From the IMG/VR virus record IMGVR_UViG_2713896777_000009: 15,296 bases of DNA; one strand, given 5' to 3'. The position numbers and the translations under genes were made by a program. Positions 1,327 through 11,934 of this stretch are shown in pieces (within the stretch, counting starts at the first letter, position 1; every line of letters begins with the position of its first letter). Source of the stretch: a virus (lineage: Duplodnaviria > Heunggongvirae > Uroviricota > Caudoviricetes). Below the pieces are notes generated by a model. The model saw only the letters and a list, made by a program, of their open reading frames with translations. It had not been told where the DNA came from and ran no database searches.

Positions 1327-2409
1327 ATGAAAAAATTAACAGTGGCAATTTCTGCTGTAGCTGCATCAGTACTGATGGCGATGTCTGCTCAGGCAGCTGA
1401 AATTTATAATAAAGACAGTAACAAGCTGGATCTGTACGGGAAAGTTAATGCTAAGCACTACTTCTCCTCTAATGATGCAGATGATGGTGATACTACTTAT
1501 GCCCGTCTTGGCTTCAAAGGTGAAACCCAAATCAACGATCAACTGACTGGTTTCGGTCAGTGGGAATATGAATTCAAAGGCAACCGCGCTGAATCTCAAG
1601 GTTCCTCCAAAGATAAAACCCGTCTTGCCTTCGCTGGCCTGAAATTCGGTGACTACGGCTCCATCGATTATGGCCGTAACTACGGTGTAGCATACGATAT
1701 TGGTGCATGGACCGACGTTCTGCCAGAATTCGGTGGCGATACCTGGACCCAAACAGATGTATTCATGACTGGTCGCACCACAGGTGTTGCAACTTATCGT
1801 AACAATGACTTCTTTGGTCTGGTTGATGGTCTGAACTTTGCTGCTCAGTATCAGGGTAAAAATGACCGTACTGACGTAACTCAAGCTAATGGTGATGGTT
1901 TCGGTTTCTCCACTACTTATGAGTATGAAGGTTTCGGCGTAGGTGCAACCTATGCTAAATCTGATCGCACTAATAATCAGGTTATCTACGGTAACAACAG
2001 CCTGAATGCATCTGGTCAAAATGCTGAAGTATGGGCAGCTGGTCTGAAATATGATGCGAACAACATCTATCTGGCTACTACCTATTCTGAAACCCAAAAC
2101 ATGACTGTTTTTGGTAAAAACCATATTGCCAACAAAGCACAAAACTTCGAAGTAGTTGCACAATATCAGTTCGACTTCGGTCTGCGTCCGTCCGTTGCTT
2201 ATCTGCAATCTAAAGGGAAAGACTTGGGTGCTTGGGGTGATCAGGACCTGGTTGAATATATTGATGTAGGTGCAACCTATTACTTCAACAAAAATATGTC
2301 CACTTTTGTTGACTACAAAATCAACCTGATTGATAAGAGCGATTTCACGAAAGCATCTGGCGTTGCTACCGATGATATCGTTGCTGTAGGTATGGTTTAC
2401 CAGTTCTAA
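1327..2409 (+). CDS. nmpC: Outer-membrane general porin, OmpC/OmpF/PhoE family (prophage NmpC/OmpD-like); candidate lysogenic-conversion gene
   Basis: 360-aa ORF with signal peptide [23 protein letters not shown]|AE, Gly/Tyr-rich beta-barrel repeats and terminal aromatic YQF. RBS AAGGG before ATG 1327. Opposite strand to the flanking phage late genes. Confidence 0.93.
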
Positions 2410-2423
2410 TTTGATTACTAAAA

Positions 2424-2481
2424 CATATGTTGTGGGAGGCTTTGCCTCCCCAACATATAAGTGGCTCCCTCAAGCCACTTC
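2424..2481. terminator. Two tandem hairpins between the convergent porin and Q/late transcripts; likely bidirectional terminator (porin terminator and tR'-like)
   Basis: Hairpin 1 ATATGTTGTGGGAGG-ctttg-CCTCCCCAACATAT (2424..2459); hairpin 2 AAGTGGCT-ccctca-AGCCACTT (2460..2481). On the minus strand hairpin 1 is followed by GTTTTAGT. Confidence 0.55.
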
Positions 2482-2597
2482 CTTTAGAAGCACAACCTTG
2501 CTTCTAACTATATAAACCTTCTGTTATATATTACCCTTTATTTTTGGGGGCGTTTCAACGCCCCATTCTTAATAATTTTTAGTAAACAATTGGCATA
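2482..2597 (-). promoter_or_regulatory. Putative late promoter (pR'-like) and Q-utilisation region downstream of Q
   Basis: Position only: the intergenic stretch immediately downstream of Q and upstream of tR'-like hairpins. On the minus strand there is TTGAAA-18 nt-TAATAT and a GGGGCG/CGCCCC hairpin at 2544..2563. No experimental mapping. Confidence 0.3.
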
Positions 2598-2981
2598 TTA
2601 ATTAGAGTTATTAACAACGATATCCATCTCTAACCGGATATCTAATGCCATTAACATCCCTTCAATTATGCCCTCAGCCTTCTGTAACCTTTTCCCGATA
2701 TAACCATCAGAGCAGCAATGCTTACCTGCCAGTGACATGAATGTCATACCGACTACATAATAATCTACTAATAAATCGTGCAAATCGCTGTTGTTCTTTT
2801 TCAGACGGGCCATGCACCCGCAAATGATCATCGCGTCATCGTCACAACATTGCGGGCGAGATTTTACTTTTGAAGTAATTAATCCCTTAAAACCGGCGGC
2901 AATGGACGACCAGGTCACATCTTCATGATTATTAGCCGCCCACGCTCCCCAACGCTCAAGAACCATCTGAATATCACGCAT
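2598..2981 (-). CDS. quuD: Late-gene antitermination protein Q (DLP12 QuuD-like family, 127 aa)
   Basis: Translation [24 protein letters not shown]...[16 protein letters not shown]...; ATG at 2981 with GGAG RBS. The ORF-track start at 2996 is a TTG extension. Sits upstream of the lysis genes on the same strand. Confidence 0.78.
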
Positions 2982-3066
2982 CAACTTACTCCACAAAAAT
3001 CAGACCAGAACGCCAATTACAAGCAAAAATCAACGAAACAGTATTAGTTGATTGTTATCTCTGACT

Positions 3067-3207
3067 TCATACTCCTGCTCCTGTCAGGGTTTTGGCGTAA
3101 TTCTTCAGTATTCGGTAATCGGTCAAAACAGAACCGGGGAAACGATATAAGCGCAGACGCCCCCAGCGGTGGCGAAGACGTTCTGCCATATAAAACTCAA
3201 ACATCAT
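3067..3207 (-). CDS. ylcG: Small nin-region protein (YlcG-like, about 46 aa)
   Basis: Manual translation [49 protein letters not shown] overlaps the rusA stop (ATGA), consistent with translational coupling. Below the ORF-track length cutoff. Confidence 0.5.
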
Positions 3208-3566
3208 TCATTCCCCATTTCGGTGATGGTCAGTTCCAGCCTCCCACCTTTGGTAACAGGCATCTTCACAACGCGGTAATCAACGACCTGAGCATCATCC
3301 AGCCAGAAACCTGCTTTAGTGAGTGCGTCAAAAGCGGCTTTTTGCAGATTATCCAGGTCACGGCGACGGCGATCCGGCATGTGGCACTCAATGCGGATTT
3401 TCACAGGCATAGCCAAGCCGATATCCAGCATTGCGTTTTTAATGATTCGGGCGACGTTATCGCGGTATGCCTGCCCCTCTGCGCTGACGTGCGTGCGCCC
3501 GCGATTATGGCGGTAATAGCGATTATTGCTCGGAGGCCAGGGTAATGTGATGCTGTAGGTATTCAC
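3204..3566 (-). CDS. rusA: Holliday-junction resolvase RusA (120 aa, GTG start)
   Basis: Translation (M)[122 protein letters not shown] start overlaps the ybcO stop (GTGA); RBS AGAGGGGG upstream. Confidence 0.85.
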
Positions 3567-4471: not shown

Positions 4472-4506
4472 GCTTCACCTCCGCAGAGGTCAAACGCTGG
4501 ATAAAG

Positions 4507-4599
4507 AAAATCGCAGGTGCATTTCTGCATCTGTGACGGGAGAAGATAGTTTAGATTGTATGTGCGCATAAACGTCCCCGTTTAGCGCAGAAGTCACCG
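4507..4599. repeat. 93-bp direct repeat, copy 1 (left boundary of the HEPN/Bro-N cargo segment)
   Basis: aaaatcgcaggtgcatttctgcatctgtgacgggagaagatagtttagattgtatgtgcgcataaacgtccccgtttagcgcagaagtcaccg matches 6829..6921 in the same orientation with about 5 mismatches. Contains an internal imperfect palindrome GCGCATAAACG/CGTTTAGCGC. Confidence 0.9.
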
Positions 4600-4620
4600 G
4601 AGGAGTTCAAACTCCGGTGA
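4591..4620. terminator. Perfect 9-bp stem hairpin (TCACCGGAG-gagttcaaa-CTCCGGTGA) at the end of repeat copy 1
   Basis: Inverted repeat read directly; only weak T-tracts flank it, so terminator function is uncertain. Confidence 0.35.
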
Positions 4621-4692
4621 CTTAATTATGACAAGTTGATTATTGAAAATCAAAAGTCATTTAAACAATAATGATACCCAGCAAGAGATTTC

Positions 4693-5094
4693 TTATTTTA
4701 ACTCATAGATCAGACAGTCAACGATTTCTAAACCATTTACCATAGAATTAGAAACGCGAACTTTACCATCGTTGACTCTAGCAAATCCTTTTAACATTTT
4801 ATAAACAAAAGCTGAATCCCCCTTAGCCTCAATTGCTTCTAATGGTATCGGCTTATACTTTTTTGATATGCTATTTCTATTTATCTCACTGATTTTTCTA
4901 TATATTTCTGCCGGCCCACGTTCTGAGAAGTCACTGATAACTAAAATATATCTCCAAGATAGATCTGGGTAATAAAACCACATTGCAGCATCAATAGTTA
5001 AATTCTGTAACTTGAGTTTTTTTAACAAAAATTGACCTGAGAATTCCATATCTTTTGTCAACTCTCTGCCGATTACCAGTGTGCTTTTACCCAT
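4693..5094 (-). CDS. Hypothetical protein (133 aa), downstream overlapping partner of the HEPN gene; no recognisable nucleotidyltransferase motif
   Basis: ORF MGKSTLVIGRELTKDMEFSGQFLLKKLKLQNL...; ATG 5094 with GGAG RBS 7 nt upstream, lying inside the last 22 nt of the HEPN gene in another frame. AT-rich, unlike flanking phage genes. Confidence 0.6.
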   Translation of the reverse strand: MGKSTLVIGRELTKDMEFSGQFLLKKLKLQNLTIDAAMWFYYPDLSWRYILVISDFSERGPAEIYRKISEINRNSISKKYKPIPLEAIEAKGDSAFVYKMLKGFARVNDGKVRVSNSMVNGLEIVDCLIYELK

Positions 5095-5489
5095 TTCAAA
5101 ACTCCAGAATTTTGGTCACCTACAGCATCAAACAATTGTTCGGCCATAGCTTTACTTATGTTATTGTCGTATCTAAATTGCTCGCTCCAGTCTTTAACGA
5201 CCGACCAGTTAATCTCCAACGAAACATCATTTTTTGCGTCAGCAATCAAAATTTGATGTAAGTTGGCAATTTTGAGAAGTTGCGACAAATCATGAGTATA
5301 TGAATCATTTACGACTTTTTTGTTTGGAAACTCATGTTGTAAAAATGACTTGGCAATACAGGCCTTCAATGCACATTCAACTGCATACCCACAAAGATAA
5401 TATGCACCATGAAAAAAGCCATGATCAAGCAAGCATTTGGCCTCATTAAGCCTAGTGTCAGATAATGCTTCAAGGTCGTTTTTATTCAT
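5073..5489 (-). CDS. HEPN-domain protein (138 aa; Pfam HEPN PF05168-like fold, without a clear Rx4-6H motif)
   Basis: Translation ...HGFFHGAYYLCGYAVECALKACIAK...YTHDLSQLLKIANL...EQFRYDNN... has HEPN-like helices, an H-D-L motif and an RY motif. Candidate sigma70 promoter upstream on the minus strand (-10 TATAAT 5523..5528, -35 TTCCTA 5547..5552). Confidence 0.62.
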   Translation of the reverse strand: MNKNDLEALSDTRLNEAKCLLDHGFFHGAYYLCGYAVECALKACIAKSFLQHEFPNKKVVNDSYTHDLSQLLKIANLHQILIADAKNDVSLEINWSVVKDWSEQFRYDNNISKAMAEQLFDAVGDQNSGVLKWVKAHW

Positions 5490-5788: not shown

Positions 5789-6397
5789 TTACAGCCGTTC
5801 AGAACGTAAATGCGTCAATACTCGACTCCACTTATCATCCTGCCACGGCCGGAATTTTACATGTGCCGTTTCTCTGGCAAGGATTGCCTGTGCCTTATTG
5901 AGTATCCGGGGATATTCTTGTTCGATTGAAGTGAAGCGACCGGCTTCGCGGTGTTCTGCTACCTGAAGAAGCGGAGTGACGTTTTGGCAAGCGGTTAACA
6001 TTGTGTCACTTGCCCGCCATAACCAAGCAAGTGTGCAAAGTTCGTTATCAGTGAATTGTTTTGTGATTGGGGATTGTTGAATTTCTCGATCGAGAATATC
6101 CAGCACCCAGCGGCGGAATTCTTTGGCCACAGGAGTGCGGGCGAACATGGCGATCAGATGGGCGCCACGGAGGGAGAAAATGCGAGTCTTCTTACGATAA
6201 TTTCCTGAGGTCGTTGATTCGACGACCTGAGACATTCCGTCAGTAAACTCATCAATATTTTTGTTGTAGATGTCGGTTACTGCTTTGGTGCTGGCATATT
6301 TTAATGCTGCCGCCAATTCTTTGCTGGTAAACCAGATCTGGTTGTTGTGATTTATAGGAGTGAATTTTACATCGCGGAATGCGAGCTGAGTGACCAT
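5789..6397 (-). CDS. Bro-N domain protein (phage antirepressor/KilA-type N-terminal domain) with an uncharacterised C-terminal domain; start uncertain (ATG 6397 or 6532)
   Basis: Translation from MVTQLAFRDVKFTPINHNNQIWFTSKELAAALKY...RIFSLRGAHLIAMFARTPVAKEFRRWVLDIL matches the Bro-N pattern. The ORF-track start 6634 is TTG and spans a minus-strand terminator, so the long form was rejected. Confidence 0.68.
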   Translation of the reverse strand: MVTQLAFRDVKFTPINHNNQIWFTSKELAAALKYASTKAVTDIYNKNIDEFTDGMSQVVESTTSGNYRKKTRIFSLRGAHLIAMFARTPVAKEFRRWVLDILDREIQQSPITKQFTDNELCTLAWLWRASDTMLTACQNVTPLLQVAEHREAGRFTSIEQEYPRILNKAQAILARETAHVKFRPWQDDKWSRVLTHLRSERL

Positions 6398-6560
6398 AGC
6401 GATAATCTCGTTTTGAATTTGAGCTATCACCACCGACGACGCCAATCGACTGGTGGTGGACTGTGCAAGGTTGGCGTAACCGGTCAAAACGAAATCCGGC
6501 GCTTCCGAAGAAGCCCTCACACAGCCCACCATAATTTTTGTGTAGACGTGCACTGCGCAT

Positions 6561-6586
6561 AAAAAAACCGCGAACGCGGTTATGCG
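6561..6586 (-). terminator. Intrinsic terminator on the minus strand (stem ACCGCG/CGCGGT followed by U7)
   Basis: Plus strand aaaaaaACCGCGaaCGCGGTtatgcg; on the minus strand the hairpin is followed by TTTTTTT. Confidence 0.5.
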
Positions 6587-6828
6587 TCGTTTTGATGTCC
6601 GGGACGCCAATCCCGTGTGCCGATTTTGCGGCAACGCACAGAATATAGCGCCGGATAAATAATGTCGTCAACCCTTGCATATGGGGGGCGCGATGATCAC
6701 TACTACCACCATAATCGCTCCAACTGTTGCAACTACTTTAGGCTAAGACATCACGATTTCCATATCACCTTTAGCCGCCAGACAAACAGAGACTCCCTGT
6801 TCTTGGCTGCCAAAAACACCGAATGCAA

Positions 6829-6921
6829 AAAATCGCAGGTGTATTTCTGCATCTGTGGAGGGAGAAGAGAGTTTGGATTGTATGTGCGCATAAACGTCCC
6901 CGTTTAGCGCAGAAGTCACCG
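6829..6921. repeat. 93-bp direct repeat, copy 2 (right boundary of the HEPN/Bro-N cargo segment)
   Basis: Aligns base for base with 4507..4599 (about 88 of 93 identical). Confidence 0.9.
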
Positions 6922-7149
6922 TAGTTGTTCATATTCTGATGACATGATAATTTCCTATTGAATAGAAAAAATTAACACGACTCATTCTTATGACTGGAAA
7001 AAGCAATCATGCTAATAATCATTGTTGTTCCAGTTCCAAATGCAGCGAAATAATCACCAATATTTTTTCTACCGGTTTCGACTTTGATGCTATATTCTGC
7101 TAACACCTAACTAACACTACGTTTCACACAGCAATTACATGGAAATAAC

Positions 7150-7497
7150 ATGACTATCAAAGCGACTGACATAGAGATTCTTCATCGTTATGCTGAAGGG
7201 GTAATGGAACGTTCTAACCATCATGCAAAAAATGTTGGTGCAGCCGCTCTTACATTGCTAGGAGGTGTTATCTGGAAAGCCCTGCCCGGATCAATCGAGA
7301 TAAGAACGTATAACGGAAGTCTTGCAAATATGGTGTGGTGGCAAAGCGAAAGAACATTAAAAAATTATGCAATCTCATACAACCATAATTCATGTGAAAT
7401 TGAAATGAGAGATGAATCAGTCAAAGGTGCTGTATTATTTAGCATTTCCAACGAAACCACTCCAGAAAAAATATTATCACAGCTTTCTGAGCTTTAA
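7150..7497 (+). CDS. Hypothetical protein (115 aa), opposite strand to the early-right operon, between P and the nin region; moron-like
   Basis: ORF MTIKATDIEILHRYAEGVMERSNHHAKNVGAAALTLLGGVIWKALPG...; preceded by 230 bp of AT-rich sequence and followed by a GC hairpin at 7502..7519. No family recognised. Confidence 0.55.
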   Translation: MTIKATDIEILHRYAEGVMERSNHHAKNVGAAALTLLGGVIWKALPGSIEIRTYNGSLANMVWWQSERTLKNYAISYNHNSCEIEMRDESVKGAVLFSISNETTPEKILSQLSEL

Positions 7498-7501
7498 TTA
7501 A

Positions 7502-7519
7502 AGGCGGTGCTAACACCGC
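7502..7519. terminator. Hairpin GGCGGTG-ctaa-CACCGCC between the convergent 115-aa gene and P; U-tract on the minus strand
   Basis: Inverted repeat read directly; on the minus strand it is followed by TTTAATTAAAG. Confidence 0.45.
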
Positions 7520-7701
7520 CCATACCATTACTCCACATCTTACGCAACTTGATAATTATGCTCTATTAAATACCCACAATATTTCATCAATGCATGGGTC
7601 AGCTACAAAATGTTTACCGTGGTAATTCCTGTTTTCGCAACATCTCAAAAGAACAATAAACACTGTATTTCTTCAAGTAACGAAGAATCTTTCTTTGCCC
7701 G

Positions 7702-8403
7702 TCATACACTTGCTCCTTTCAGCCCAAACTTAGCTTTGATTTCTGCGATCTTCGCCAGAGCCTGTGCACGATTTAGAGGTCTACCGCCCATAACAGGAAG
7801 TTGTTTTACTGGTTCAGGTATCGTCTCACCACGGTTAATTCGCGCTGTCATACAGGTCAGTTCATCGGCAGCCTTGCGCCGTAATTCCGCGTCAGTCAGC
7901 GCATTGGCCCGCATGTTCTGGTACAGGTTGGTAACCAACCAGTAATGCGCGTTCGATTTCCACGGATAAGACTCTGCATCCGGATACAGGCCACGCTTCC
8001 GGCAATACTCGTAAACCATATCAACCAGCTCGCTGACGTTTGGCAGCCCGGCGTTAACGGATGCTTCTTCCCGGCACCATGCAACAAACTGCCCGGGTGA
8101 TGGCAGAAATGGTCTATTCTGCCGACGGGCAACACGCATTCCGGCGCTCACCTGTTCCATCGTGGTGATCCCGTTTTCCCGGAAAGCCAGAACCCACTGG
8201 CGGCGGATTTCGTTCAGTTCGTTCTGGTCACGATTAGCCAGGCTCGCCGGGAAAGTTGCCAGTAACTGGCTGAATACACCGTTGATTATCTGCGCTACCT
8301 GCTGTACCTGCGGCTTTTCGTCGTACTGTTCCGGCATGTTGTTGGCGATCCGACGCATCTGCTCACGGTCAAAGTTAATCATCTGTGCGGCGATGTTTTT
8401 CAT
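7702..8403 (-). CDS. P: Replication protein P (lambda P-like helicase loader, 233 aa)
   Basis: Translation MKNIAAQMINFDREQMRRIANNMPEQYDEKPQVQQVAQIINGVFSQLLATFPASLANRDQNE...AKIAEIKAKFGLKGASV is near-identical to lambda P as I recall it. ATG 8403 overlaps the O stop (ATGA). Confidence 0.93.
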   Translation of the reverse strand: MKNIAAQMINFDREQMRRIANNMPEQYDEKPQVQQVAQIINGVFSQLLATFPASLANRDQNELNEIRRQWVLAFRENGITTMEQVSAGMRVARRQNRPFLPSPGQFVAWCREEASVNAGLPNVSELVDMVYEYCRKRGLYPDAESYPWKSNAHYWLVTNLYQNMRANALTDAELRRKAADELTCMTARINRGETIPEPVKQLPVMGGRPLNRAQALAKIAEIKAKFGLKGASV

Positions 8404-9413
8404 AGATCCACCCCGTAAATCCAGTCTGTGTTTGTCAGGTCGAGTTTTGGTTTGCCGACTGTCACGCCAGCCTGTTGCTTGTTCCGGTTGATTTCGAGCT
8501 GGGTCCACTTGTCGCGGAGTTTGGCCGGACTCAGCACGTTACCGGACNNNNNNNNNNNNNNNNNNNNNNNNNNNNNNNNNNNNNNNNNNNNNNNNNNGCG
8601 GAGTTTGGCCGGACTCAGCACGTTACCGGACCAGAAGTTGTCCTGGCAGGCCCAGCGGAACAGTACACACATGTCGCGGTGGTTACGTCCATCACGTTCA
8701 CGCATCAGACGGATATCGTTAGCCCACCCTGCAAAATTCGGTTTTCTGGCTGATGGCGCGATGGTCTTCACCATGTCAAACATCCACTCTGCGGCGGTCA
8801 GGTCTTCTGCTGTCCCCCACTTGCTGCCGCTCTGAATCGCAGCATCCGCTTTCACCACAGGAAGGTCGTTTTCTGGCAGGTCAGAGGATTCGCCAGAATT
8901 CTCGGACGAATAAGGTTTTATATTGTCTTTTGTTAGTTTGTCTTTTGTGTTTACCTGATTCGGGTAAGTGCCTTTACCTGATTTGGGTAAACTTTTCTTA
9001 CCTGATTCAGGTAAATTTACCTCTTTCAGGTAAACTTTATTTTTCTTACCTGATTCGGGTAATGTTGACCATTCACTGACCACATTATTAATGCCGATAT
9101 TCCGCCCGCTCTGAATAAAAATCCCACGCTTTACCAGAACACTTTTTGCAGCAGAACACTTGTGCGGCAATATCCCGGTCAACTCGGAAAGTTGCTCGTT
9201 GCTCACCCAGTCCAGTTTTTTATTAAAGCCATATGTTTTGCGCATGACAGCCAGGAAGACCAGAAGCTGGTGCTGTGTTAATCCGGCCAGCATTACAGCT
9301 TCCAGCAACTCATTTGCAATGCGCGTATAACCATCATCGAGATCTGCCACGCGCGGCTCCTTTTGTGCCGCATCCGGCACTGGAAAATTGAATATCTCAG
9401 CAGTGTTTGCCAT
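8400..9413 (-). CDS. O: Replication initiator O (lambda O family); N-terminal origin-binding domain differs from lambda, C-terminal P-interaction domain is lambda-like; interrupted by the 8548..8597 gap
   Basis: Translation MANTAEIFNFPVP...VADLDDGY...TYPNQVNTKDKLTKDNIKPYSSENSGESSD...FWSGNVLSPAKLRDKWTQLEINRNKQQAGV...DLTNTDWIYGVDL; ATG 9413 with GGAGG RBS. Iterons lie inside the gene. Confidence 0.9.
   Translation of the reverse strand: MANTAEIFNFPVPDAAQKEPRVADLDDGYTRIANELLEAVMLAGLTQHQLLVFLAVMRKTYGFNKKLDWVSNEQLSELTGILPHKCSAAKSVLVKRGIFIQSGRNIGINNVVSEWSTLPESGKKNKVYLKEVNLPESGKKSLPKSGKGTYPNQVNTKDKLTKDNIKPYSSENSGESSDLPENDLPVVKADAAIQSGSKWGTAEDLTAAEWMFDMVKTIAPSARKPNFAGWANDIRLMRERDGRNHRDMCVLFRWACQDNFWSGNVLSPAKLRXXXXXXXXXXXXXXXXXSGNVLSPAKLRDKWTQLEINRNKQQAGVTVGKPKLDLTNTDWIYGVDL
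8548..8597. other. Assembly/scaffold gap (50 N) flanked by an identical 34-bp sequence on both sides
   Basis: gcggagtttggccggactcagcacgttaccggac occurs at 8514..8547 and again at 8598..8631, indicating overlapping contig ends joined with N. Confidence 0.9.
8896..9064. promoter_or_regulatory. Replication origin within O: five iteron-like palindromic repeats (TTACCTGATTCGGGTAA core) adjacent to an AT-rich stretch
   Basis: Repeats at about 8950, 8974, 8998, 9017 and 9046, each about 19 bp with TTACC...GGTAA symmetry; AT-rich tract 8896..8949 lies on the gene-downstream side, as in lambda ori. Confidence 0.8.
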
Positions 9414-11214: not shown

Positions 11215-11478
11215 ATGAGTAATAAAACACTTGTTAAAAAATCAAATAACTGTGTCGATGCATACGCCGACGCGTTTGGCTACTCTTCGTTTGGTGACGG
11301 CTCTCAGCGCCTAGGTTCAATTTCTTTTTTTCATAATGTAACTGAATGGCCTGTTGATGAAAGTGACGATGTTGAGAACATAAAGTACAACATTGCAACC
11401 ATTAGAATGCCCGAAGAATTGATGCTTAAATTGGCTGACTTCATTCGCGACCAGCATGACAAAGCTAAAACAAACTAA
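11215..11478 (+). CDS. Hypothetical acidic protein (87 aa) immediately downstream of cI (rex position)
   Basis: ORF MSNKTLVKKSNNCVDAYADAFGYSSFGDGSQRLGS...; RBS GGAAAGG before the ATG; AT-rich relative to cI. No family recognised. Confidence 0.55.
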   Translation: MSNKTLVKKSNNCVDAYADAFGYSSFGDGSQRLGSISFFHNVTEWPVDESDDVENIKYNIATIRMPEELMLKLADFIRDQHDKAKTN

Positions 11479-11490
11479 TCGTAATTAATT

Positions 11491-11934
11491 ATGAAACACG
11501 ATTATTACGAAGCTCCAAACCTAAATGATAAAATTGCAAAGGCGGCAGAATCATTTTGTTTGCACTCCAGTGCGTCTTCCCAGCTAGCAGGTATATCTGG
11601 AAAAAGATGGGACATGCTACAATCAAGTGGTAGCAGTGGGTCTGGGAGTGATAACATGCCTGAAAAAGTTGCAAAACTGGAGTCCGATGTTGCTCATATC
11701 AAACGAGACGTTGATGAACTTAAAACAGACGTTAAAGCTATCGACAAAAATATGATAACTATTCTTGCACGTCTGGACTCTATAAAAGAATCCTTAACAA
11801 ACAAGCCATCAAGTGATGCTGTCGATAGAAAGATTTCAGACGCAAAGCTTGCGGTATTGCTTGGTGTTCCAGCAATCATCGCTGCAGGAACAGGACTTTA
11901 TAAGCTATCAATGTACTTTTTCTTTAGTGCTTAA
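11491..11934 (+). CDS. Hypothetical protein with Gly/Ser linker, coiled-coil segment and C-terminal transmembrane helix (147 aa; alternative start at 11656 gives a 92-aa XhlA-like membrane protein)
   Basis: ORF ...SSGSSGSGSDNMPEKVAKLESDVAHIKRDVDELKTDVKAIDKNMITILARLDSIKESL...LAVLLGVPAIIAAGTGLY...; the ATG at 11656 has a GGGAG RBS while the ATG at 11491 has none obvious. Confidence 0.55.
   Translation: MKHDYYEAPNLNDKIAKAAESFCLHSSASSQLAGISGKRWDMLQSSGSSGSGSDNMPEKVAKLESDVAHIKRDVDELKTDVKAIDKNMITILARLDSIKESLTNKPSSDAVDRKISDAKLAVLLGVPAIIAAGTGLYKLSMYFFFSA

Follow-up and report, generated by a model that had tools for sequence, protein, structure and literature searches.

The P-to-nin slot and its insert

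The window analysed here comprises the 15,296 nucleotides of IMG/VR virus record IMGVR_UViG_2713896777_000009, a DLP12/lambda-like Escherichia coli prophage, and our subject is a small gene in it, ORF115, that lies between the replication gene P and the nin region. The minus strand of the window carries the lysis genes, Q, rusA/ninE/ybcN, a pair encoding a 133-aa and a HEPN protein, a Bro-N/P22AR_C gene and then P, O, a YdaT/CII-like and a cro-like gene, while the plus strand also holds an S24 repressor and gam/bet/exo. In the stretch around P-to-nin, ORF115 is the sole plus-strand gene, according to both the list of open reading frames (ORFs) and RefSeq. An initial annotation had described it as an antisense moron of 115 residues inside the minus-strand early-right operon, and this description of the reading frame is accurate: it starts with ATG and all flanking genes are on the minus strand. 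ORF115 and P lie 204 nt apart (Table 1).

Table 1. Coordinates of ORF115, its module and the adjoining features in the window
Feature	Position	Strand	Remarks
VCH_CASS14 (PF18315) family coding sequence (ORF115)	7150..7497	+	ATG start, 115 aa; RefSeq WP_000152742.1, 'hypothetical protein'
GC hairpin	7503..7520		GGCGGTG-CTAA-CACCGCC, 7-bp stem, 4-nt loop; starts 6 nt past the stop codon; putative terminator/insulator
Module upstream region	6976..7149	+	GC 0.356; candidate extended -10; weak Shine-Dalgarno GGAA at 7141-7144
AT-rich spacer in module	7521..7691		GC ~0.37; right boundary at ~7692
Left boundary of module: 162-nt junction repeat, second copy	6814..6975		81% identical to the first copy at 4492-4653; truncated copy of a small coding sequence that normally precedes ybcN
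Replication gene P, early-right operon, convergent with the moron	7702..8508	-	PF06992, E=1.4e-61; the RefSeq start gives 7702-8403
Bro-N/P22AR_C anti-repressor-like (Ant-like) gene, other side of module	5789..6634	-	the RefSeq start gives 5789-6397

The gene is part of a module of 716 bp (6976-7691) with a GC content of 0.373, compared with 0.533 for P, 0.493 for O and 0.456 for the whole window. We placed its limits at these positions because similarity in the P region stops at about 7692 and because the junction repeat covers 6814-6975. Other lambdoid prophages align with the P region only from window position ~7692 (matches begin at 7691-7692), about 10 nt beyond the P stop codon. In sister E. 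coli prophages this slot is filled by ren or by unrelated genes, and prophages in which ren is annotated there share just the P segment with the window. On the left side, positions 6823-6951 are ~90% identical to the segment immediately upstream of ybcN in the related prophages L115 and L116, and RefSeq annotates a pseudo-coding sequence within the repeat copy. Because the same segment adjoins ybcN upstream in related prophages, the 162-nt repeat looks like a recombination junction for swapping accessory blocks. The two copies of this direct repeat bracket a block of Ant-like, HEPN and 133-aa genes. Neither non-coding flank of ORF115 is found without it: among 5426 complete E. coli genomes, sensitive blastn located both flanks in the 181 that carry the ORF and in no others.

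In its anatomy, the locus is what the term moron implies, a discrete, compositionally foreign, antisense insertion in a variable slot right after P. With the lambdoid morons (lambda bor and lom, and the HK97/HK022 morons as defined by Hendrix and colleagues) it shares the insertion of an additional gene where relatives have two genes side by side, the lower GC content, a putative promoter of its own, a hairpin right after the stop codon and an orientation independent of the surrounding operon. It differs from them in that neither bor nor lom nor lambda ren has any sequence relation to the window gene, and in that the promoter here is a candidate. The proposed replacement of ren is correct with regard to position only: ORF115 occupies the same post-P slot, but it has no similarity to ren and lies on the opposite strand, whereas ren runs in the direction of P and overlaps part of it. 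ORF115 does not abut P either, and PF18315 is its sole Pfam match. A co-oriented neighbour, as expected for a type II toxin-antitoxin pair, was not found in the window, where the nearest plus-strand ORFs are non-conserved and 112-242 nt off; such partners occur at some non-prophage loci of the family only. The moron at 7150-7497 is neither ren, nor a known defence protein, nor a toxin-antitoxin pair in the window.

We also considered a 44-aa minus-strand ORF with a hydrophobic segment (6972-7106, divergent from ORF115) as a partner. It was rejected, having no family match and no RefSeq annotation, and its DNA is unconserved outside the E. coli module; it is probably spurious.

Upstream of ORF115, about 230 bp of AT-rich sequence had been reported. 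Of this, ~174 nt is indeed AT-rich module DNA, but the remainder is the junction repeat copy. The best promoter candidate is an extended -10 element (TGcTATATT, 7088-7096) with a poor -35, and other prophage copies of the gene have motifs resembling an extended -10 at -71 to -76. The GC hairpin noted 3' of the ORF is present. It folds with -13.2 kcal/mol (z=-3.3), and none of 200 shuffles was as stable. On the minus strand the hairpin is directly followed by TTTAATTA, a T-rich tail, and an extended fold on that strand reaches -19.5 kcal/mol. A terminator scan called the hairpin on neither strand. As a terminator it may be no less effective on minus-strand (pR-side) transcription than on that of ORF115.

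Conservation of the coding sequence and variation around it

The 801 bp from 6900 to 7700 were present in 181 of the 5426 complete E. coli genomes, as a single copy each and always in the chromosome (179 at 99% identity or more, two at 95-99%). Carriers include O26, O103 and O157:H7 strains. The prophage lineage with the gene is present in ~3% of complete E. coli genomes, mainly Shiga-toxigenic strains of O26, O103 and O157. An identical protein was found in 8,982 blocks of a public assembly collection, in prophages that differ in their immunity regions and in their cI-adjacent cargo.

More diverged prophage copies share 68-74% nucleotide identity with ORF115. The alignable stretch begins 7-17 nt ahead of the ATG and extends to the stop codon or slightly beyond, and all of these copies carry their own hairpin within ~10 nt of the stop codon. 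The prophage lineages have only the coding sequence in common; the upstream region and the hairpin are lineage-specific. We then compared non-synonymous (dN) and synonymous (dS) divergence among the E. coli copy, copies from Citrobacter and other prophages and a chromosomal copy from Serratia. dN amounted to 0.09-0.37, dS was saturated (>2 or undefined), and dN/dS was 0.05-0.11 where computable. Because dN is low while dS is saturated, and because the product has an above-cutoff Pfam match, ORF115 is a real gene, beyond chance.

These data also bear on the notion of a hitch-hiker without function, or of a remnant that decays within a cryptic prophage. The fact that 179 of 181 E. coli copies are at least 99% identical means little sign of selection within E. 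coli, and the prophage bears scars, namely the junction repeat, the pseudo-coding sequence and nearby insertion sequence elements. However, no copy has lost the reading frame, dN between genera stays far lower than dS, the family-defining residues are all retained and the exact protein recurs in thousands of assembly blocks from prophages with different immunity regions. We consider mere hitch-hiking scarcely credible.

Lambda tR2 sits immediately downstream of P, which is the position of the hairpin here. It is conceivable, then, that transcription and not the protein matters, with a convergent promoter and a bidirectional hairpin that would stop the pR transcript to Q, like tR2, or slow it by antisense transcription, and thereby tune lysis timing or lysogen stability. 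The T-rich tail and the extended fold on the minus strand would suit such a device, and a transcript of the ORF would be antisense to the early-right operon. This reading conflicts with the strong purifying selection on the amino acids, with DNA flanks that are unconserved between prophage lineages, with the retention of the same protein across phyla outside prophages and with the negative terminator scan on both strands. Transcriptional interference could be an additional role but cannot be the main one, and as an explanation of the locus it is very improbable.

Copies in enterobacterial prophages are always solitary and antisense, and they occupy three different variable slots. The first is the replication (P)-to-Q region in Citrobacter and IMG/VR lambdoids; the second lies beside int/xis (L025); the third comes directly after the genes for terminase and portal in a P2-like contig (L027), at what is known in P2-like phages as the cos-adjacent anti-phage hotspot (PMC9122126).

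Other variable cargo was seen in the same and in related prophages. The slot beside cI (window ~11215-11934) differs among the sister prophages L119, L121, L123 and L124, all of which have an identical ORF115 module: it contains a gene for a 535-aa SIR2_2 protein, DUF7946/DUF7947, DUF3800 or, in the window, two genes without known function. It is a second variable hotspot with defence-type cargo. On the minus strand at 4693-5489, the genes for the 133-aa protein and the 138-aa HEPN protein overlap and have a GC content of 0.35. Both proteins match PHROGs without function (phrog_5760 and phrog_5737), and the HEPN protein matches the PADLOC candidate PDC-M28A (E=2e-7); the two genes may form a defence or toxin-antitoxin module within the variable region that also holds ORF115. 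In a Citrobacter prophage with a VCH_CASS14 moron (L126), a colicin-domain gene (364 aa, 2119-3213) is located antisense in the same Q-proximal accessory region. A second moron of the window prophage is an OmpC/NmpC-like porin gene (1327-2409, plus strand), antisense between Q and the lysis cassette. Finally, the window contains two runs of exactly 50 N each, at 226-275 and 8548-8597. The second run breaks the O gene and is flanked by a 33-nt duplication, and the O ORF is 84 nt longer than in the identical RefSeq prophage. This run and the extra length are an assembly or masking artefact without biological meaning.

The VCH_CASS14 family, its fold and its pocket

The protein was not recognised in the initial annotation. 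Profile hidden Markov model and PDB searches resolved it as a member of PF18315 (VCH_CASS14) with a solved homologue. The family match scored 71.7 bits against a gathering cutoff of 26.7 (E=5.7e-20) and covered residues 12-104 of 115, and PDB entry 3IMO was matched with E=1.3e-17, or E=2.7e-45 when the family profile was used. A profile search of PDB sequences returned nothing besides 3IMO, and Foldseek found no viral structure in BFVD at E<=0.001. PF18315 and WP_000152742 are mentioned in no paper that we found, and on function the family is covered solely by the structure paper of 2013.

3IMO is Vch_cass14, an integron-cassette protein from Vibrio cholerae, and a homodimer of two-layer alpha+beta sandwiches (PMC3548836). 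The dimer, which forms through the helical face, was shown by crystallography and size exclusion. Each subunit has a deep hydrophobic pocket ~15 A long that contained the linear density of an unassigned ligand, and acetate was bound at a cluster of Arg21, Tyr14 and Asn60 at the pocket mouth (PMC3548836). Using the list of pocket residues from that study, we found that the window protein has hydrophobic or small residues at 17 of 17 pocket positions and retains Y14, R21 and N60. Among 76 diverse family members the pocket positions are 79-100% hydrophobic. Residues of the polar cluster are similarly frequent (Y14 in 71, R21 in 68 and N60 in 72 of the 76), as are H25 (74), H24 (66), H79 (67) and Y77 (71). 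All features of PF18315 that could be tested are thus found in the window protein: the score, homology to 3IMO and its fold, and the pocket with its polar entrance. Judged by its sequence and by a model of the monomer, the product is a soluble 115-aa protein of the VCH_CASS14 fold. It would have a conserved small-ligand site, suited to a linear aliphatic molecule with a polar head, e.g. a carboxylate, or to an extended hydrophobic peptide segment.

The resemblance to Vch_cass14 extends to the length class of ~113 aa, the pocket-lining positions, the Tyr14/Arg21/Asn60 mouth and the status of a single mobile gene without assigned function. The two proteins are ~35-40% identical; the window protein has a 2-residue insertion after position 64 and several swaps to other hydrophobic residues in the pocket (I15A, A37L, F73I). 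Their genes differ in setting as well, since Vch_cass14 is a promoterless attC cassette whereas ORF115 is an antisense lambdoid moron. With respect to integron-cassette features, the context is a prophage, no integron integrase is nearby, and the hairpin, with its simple 7-bp stem, does not resemble the imperfect palindrome of an attC site. Other alpha+beta sandwiches, such as type III secretion system-chaperone-like/YbjN-like and YjbR/frataxin-like proteins (2PLG, 1S28, 2FKI), are dimeric likewise, but they differ in strand order; the topology of 3IMO was described as novel and there is no evidence of homology.

A protein with such a pocket could be a housekeeping-type accessory enzyme or small-molecule carrier of metabolic or stress benefit to the lysogen and unrelated to phages, for example in handling fatty-acid-like or other hydrophobic compounds; the gene would then be a case of lysogenic conversion in the classical sense. 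The deep conserved pocket with its linear ligand density and the acetate at Arg21/Tyr14 in 3IMO are consistent with this, as are the near-invariance of the His/Tyr/Arg/Asn cluster across phyla, the broad taxonomic range of the family in free-living soil and water bacteria, and the ordinary metabolic genes among its neighbours. However, there is no similarity to a characterised enzyme or carrier, given that the PDB profile search led to 3IMO only. Furthermore, the distribution is patchy and linked to mobile elements with highly variable neighbourhoods, and the gene is repeatedly placed in prophage hotspots, which hold mostly conflict genes. We regard a phage-unrelated enzyme or carrier as unlikely, though not negligibly so.

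Genomic company and a possible role in conflict

To describe the family as a whole, a HMMER scan of 1.84 billion representatives was used. It yielded 469 clusters at E<=1e-3, nearly all of them single-domain proteins of ~113 aa. Fusions are rare; one is informative (with Clp_N, P0159), and the rest have no Pfam partner. For a species-level survey we searched DNA with a degenerate pattern for the motif Y..GVM.RA.HHA and obtained 85 species-level loci, nearly all of which are true members. They span Alpha-, Beta- and Gammaproteobacteria, Bacteroidota, Cyanobacteria, Acidobacteriota, Planctomycetota and others. The 121 immediate neighbours of these loci are highly diverse (the biggest neighbour cluster is found at 10 loci), and no tightly linked neighbour on the same strand was seen at 48 of 92 loci. 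Among the neighbours are GmrSD_N (three times), DUF3368/PDC-S70 (three times), DNA methyltransferases/mad2, HEC-05 and PDC-M55C, and also SspE, DruA, Shedu SduA, ArdC and an HNH endonuclease. Tyrosine recombinases occur as well, sometimes with a 4-nt overlap. The family is without a constant partner, yet it is found repeatedly among conflict and mobile-element genes.

Some arrangements recur. The nearest non-prophage relative, from Serratia marcescens, is 64% identical and lies 34 nt downstream of an AIPR gene (582 aa; PADLOC AbiU, E=6e-53). This AbiU-like AIPR/VCH_CASS14 arrangement is kept in many S. marcescens assemblies. In the chromosomal loci L005-L008 (6218-8348), the two genes and a bidirectional-looking terminator stand in a non-prophage island. 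Lactococcal AbiU is a two-gene system that consists of abiU1 and the downstream, modulating abiU2, and the Serratia pair is a possible two-gene abortive-infection system. In at least five alphaproteobacterial species (L037, L058, L059, L069, L113), VCH_CASS14 forms an operon with a 165-aa protein (cluster c0) and Fic/DOC, the genes being separated by 3-nt gaps or joined by 4-nt overlaps; for the 165-aa partner we found no Pfam, PHROG or PDB relative. A plasmid version (L117, pSR6) has a tyrosine recombinase as third gene instead of Fic, and DUF499 and HigA adjoin. On a metagenomic island, VCH_CASS14 occurs with an MmeI-type restriction-modification system, TacA and DUF6530.

These linkages allow an interpretation in which ORF115 encodes an orphan antitoxin-like or anti-defence factor, i.e. 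the captured small partner of a toxic effector (AbiU-like, Fic, PIN/DUF3368 or nuclease) that, in an infection or in lysogeny, would disarm an abortive-infection or toxin system of the host. The promiscuous Panacea/PanA antitoxin domains and phage Dmd would be analogues. In Serratia the 34-nt gap leaves no space for a promoter, the genes of the Fic cluster are tightly packed, and tight linkage was also seen to DUF6530, DruA, ArdC, HNH and DUF3368 PIN-like genes. Like Panacea/PanA-type toxin or defence partner domains, VCH_CASS14 is a small conserved domain beside many unrelated effectors and sometimes translationally coupled to them. It has no sequence or fold relation to Panacea/PanA, however, and at half of its loci a tightly linked partner is missing. 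Where there are partners, they are unrelated to one another and individually rare, and the integron-cassette and prophage copies are single genes. In addition, the conservation of a buried pocket with a polar mouth resembles small-molecule binding and not a fast-evolving protein-protein interface, the orientation of the gene away from the early operon means that it is not positioned for early lytic expression, and the family is mostly chromosomal and not phage-borne. An antitoxin-like role is therefore doubtful, although worth keeping in view.

Instead, we tentatively favour an autonomous moron with a stand-alone ligand-binding protein that has a role in conflict with phages or mobile elements; as a complete package, our confidence in it stays somewhat below even. 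Within it, the anatomy of the insertion and the family membership are well supported. That the protein would work alone is suggested because no partner gene is conserved across the family. A conflict role is suggested by the company of its relatives, which occur in integron cassettes, in the P2-like cos-adjacent hotspot and in chromosomal defence islands with AbiU-like, Shedu, GmrSD, DruA, SspE, Fic and ArdC genes. In our analysis it is the most likely single biological reading, but a defence role taken by itself is less likely than the package and is proposed with low confidence.

Under the favoured reading, the cassette 6976-7691 would have entered the hypervariable P-to-nin slot by recombination, in a DLP12/lambda-like prophage now widespread in Shiga-toxigenic E. 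coli (STEC). Transcription of the gene in the repressed prophage would start at a promoter of its own, weak or of the extended -10 type, and would converge with that from pR. The hairpin may insulate the gene by keeping its transcript out of P and O, and may also serve as a tR2-like pause site or terminator for the converging early-right pR transcript. By homology to 3IMO, the product would be a homodimer of alpha+beta sandwiches, both of them with a deep hydrophobic pocket. This pocket, with Tyr14, Arg21 and Asn60 at its polar mouth and with the conserved His25 and His79, could accommodate a linear amphipathic ligand of ~15 A. Expressed in the lysogen, the protein would act as a protective or exclusion factor by binding or sensing a small molecule, and not as a known enzymatic effector.

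The comparison with cargo of prophage hotspots illustrates both sides of this proposal. After the terminase and portal genes of the P2-like contig, a relative with 63% identity stands beside a GTPase-DUF697 gene, in a slot of the kind where validated defence systems reside (Rousset et al. 2022, PMC9122126), and sister prophages with the identical module hold defence-type genes by cI. The window gene differs from such cargo in that it is not a validated system, matches no PADLOC model and has no effector-type domain (nuclease, NADase or pore). The initial suggestion of a defence, anti-defence or lysogenic-conversion factor is a reasonable guess, drawn from guilt by association with the conflict genes next to relatives elsewhere and not from the protein's own matches.

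Several findings weigh against the favoured reading. With the 115-aa protein, PADLOC (PADLOC-DB v2, E<=0.01) and NCBIfam gave zero matches, and its PHROG match, phrog_5959, has no assigned function. Among 50,697 deposited phage genomes, neither the DNA of 6900-7700 (megablast) nor the protein (tblastn) had a match, and of phage-type sources only prophages and IMG/VR contigs are known to carry the gene. Defence-type matches were counted in at least ~13 of the 121 immediate neighbours, which is a raw count without background control, and many other neighbours are ordinary genes or have no annotation. In 3IMO the ligand was left unassigned, and the strong conservation of the His/Tyr/Arg/Asn cluster could equally mean an enzyme. 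We also examined whether the basic, possibly nucleic-acid-binding beta-sheet surface of 3IMO is a family trait and rejected this (isoelectric point of the window protein 6.06, family median 6.5, values above 8 in only 22 of 76 members). As to expression, a consensus scan of 6500-8000 detected four sigma-70-like sites versus 3.2+/-1.9 expected from shuffles and hence no enrichment, so that of the promoter-like upstream sequence first described the extended -10 candidate stands, but consensus sites are at chance level. The hairpin is also without a T-run on the plus strand.

PF18315 is a structurally solved but functionally blank family, and the prophage gene offers a tractable entry to its function. 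It is a single small gene in an easy E. coli host, a liganded crystal structure is at hand, and a natural AbiU-like pair exists in Serratia; its relatives sit in prophage variable slots and next to defence and toxin genes elsewhere. Should ORF115 turn out to act in defence or counter-defence, the known systems would gain a type that binds a ligand and has no effector; otherwise the gene would be one more ordinary moron without known function. More speculatively, and we think this rather unlikely, VCH_CASS14 as a whole could be an unrecognised, widespread single-gene player in conflict: a dimeric sensor or sponge for a linear amphipathic, lipid- or peptide-like signal, acting alone or beside effectors such as AbiU-like proteins, Fic, Shedu and nucleases. 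In that case, the copy in the E. coli prophage would either shield STEC lysogens against other phages or disarm abortive-infection systems of the host.

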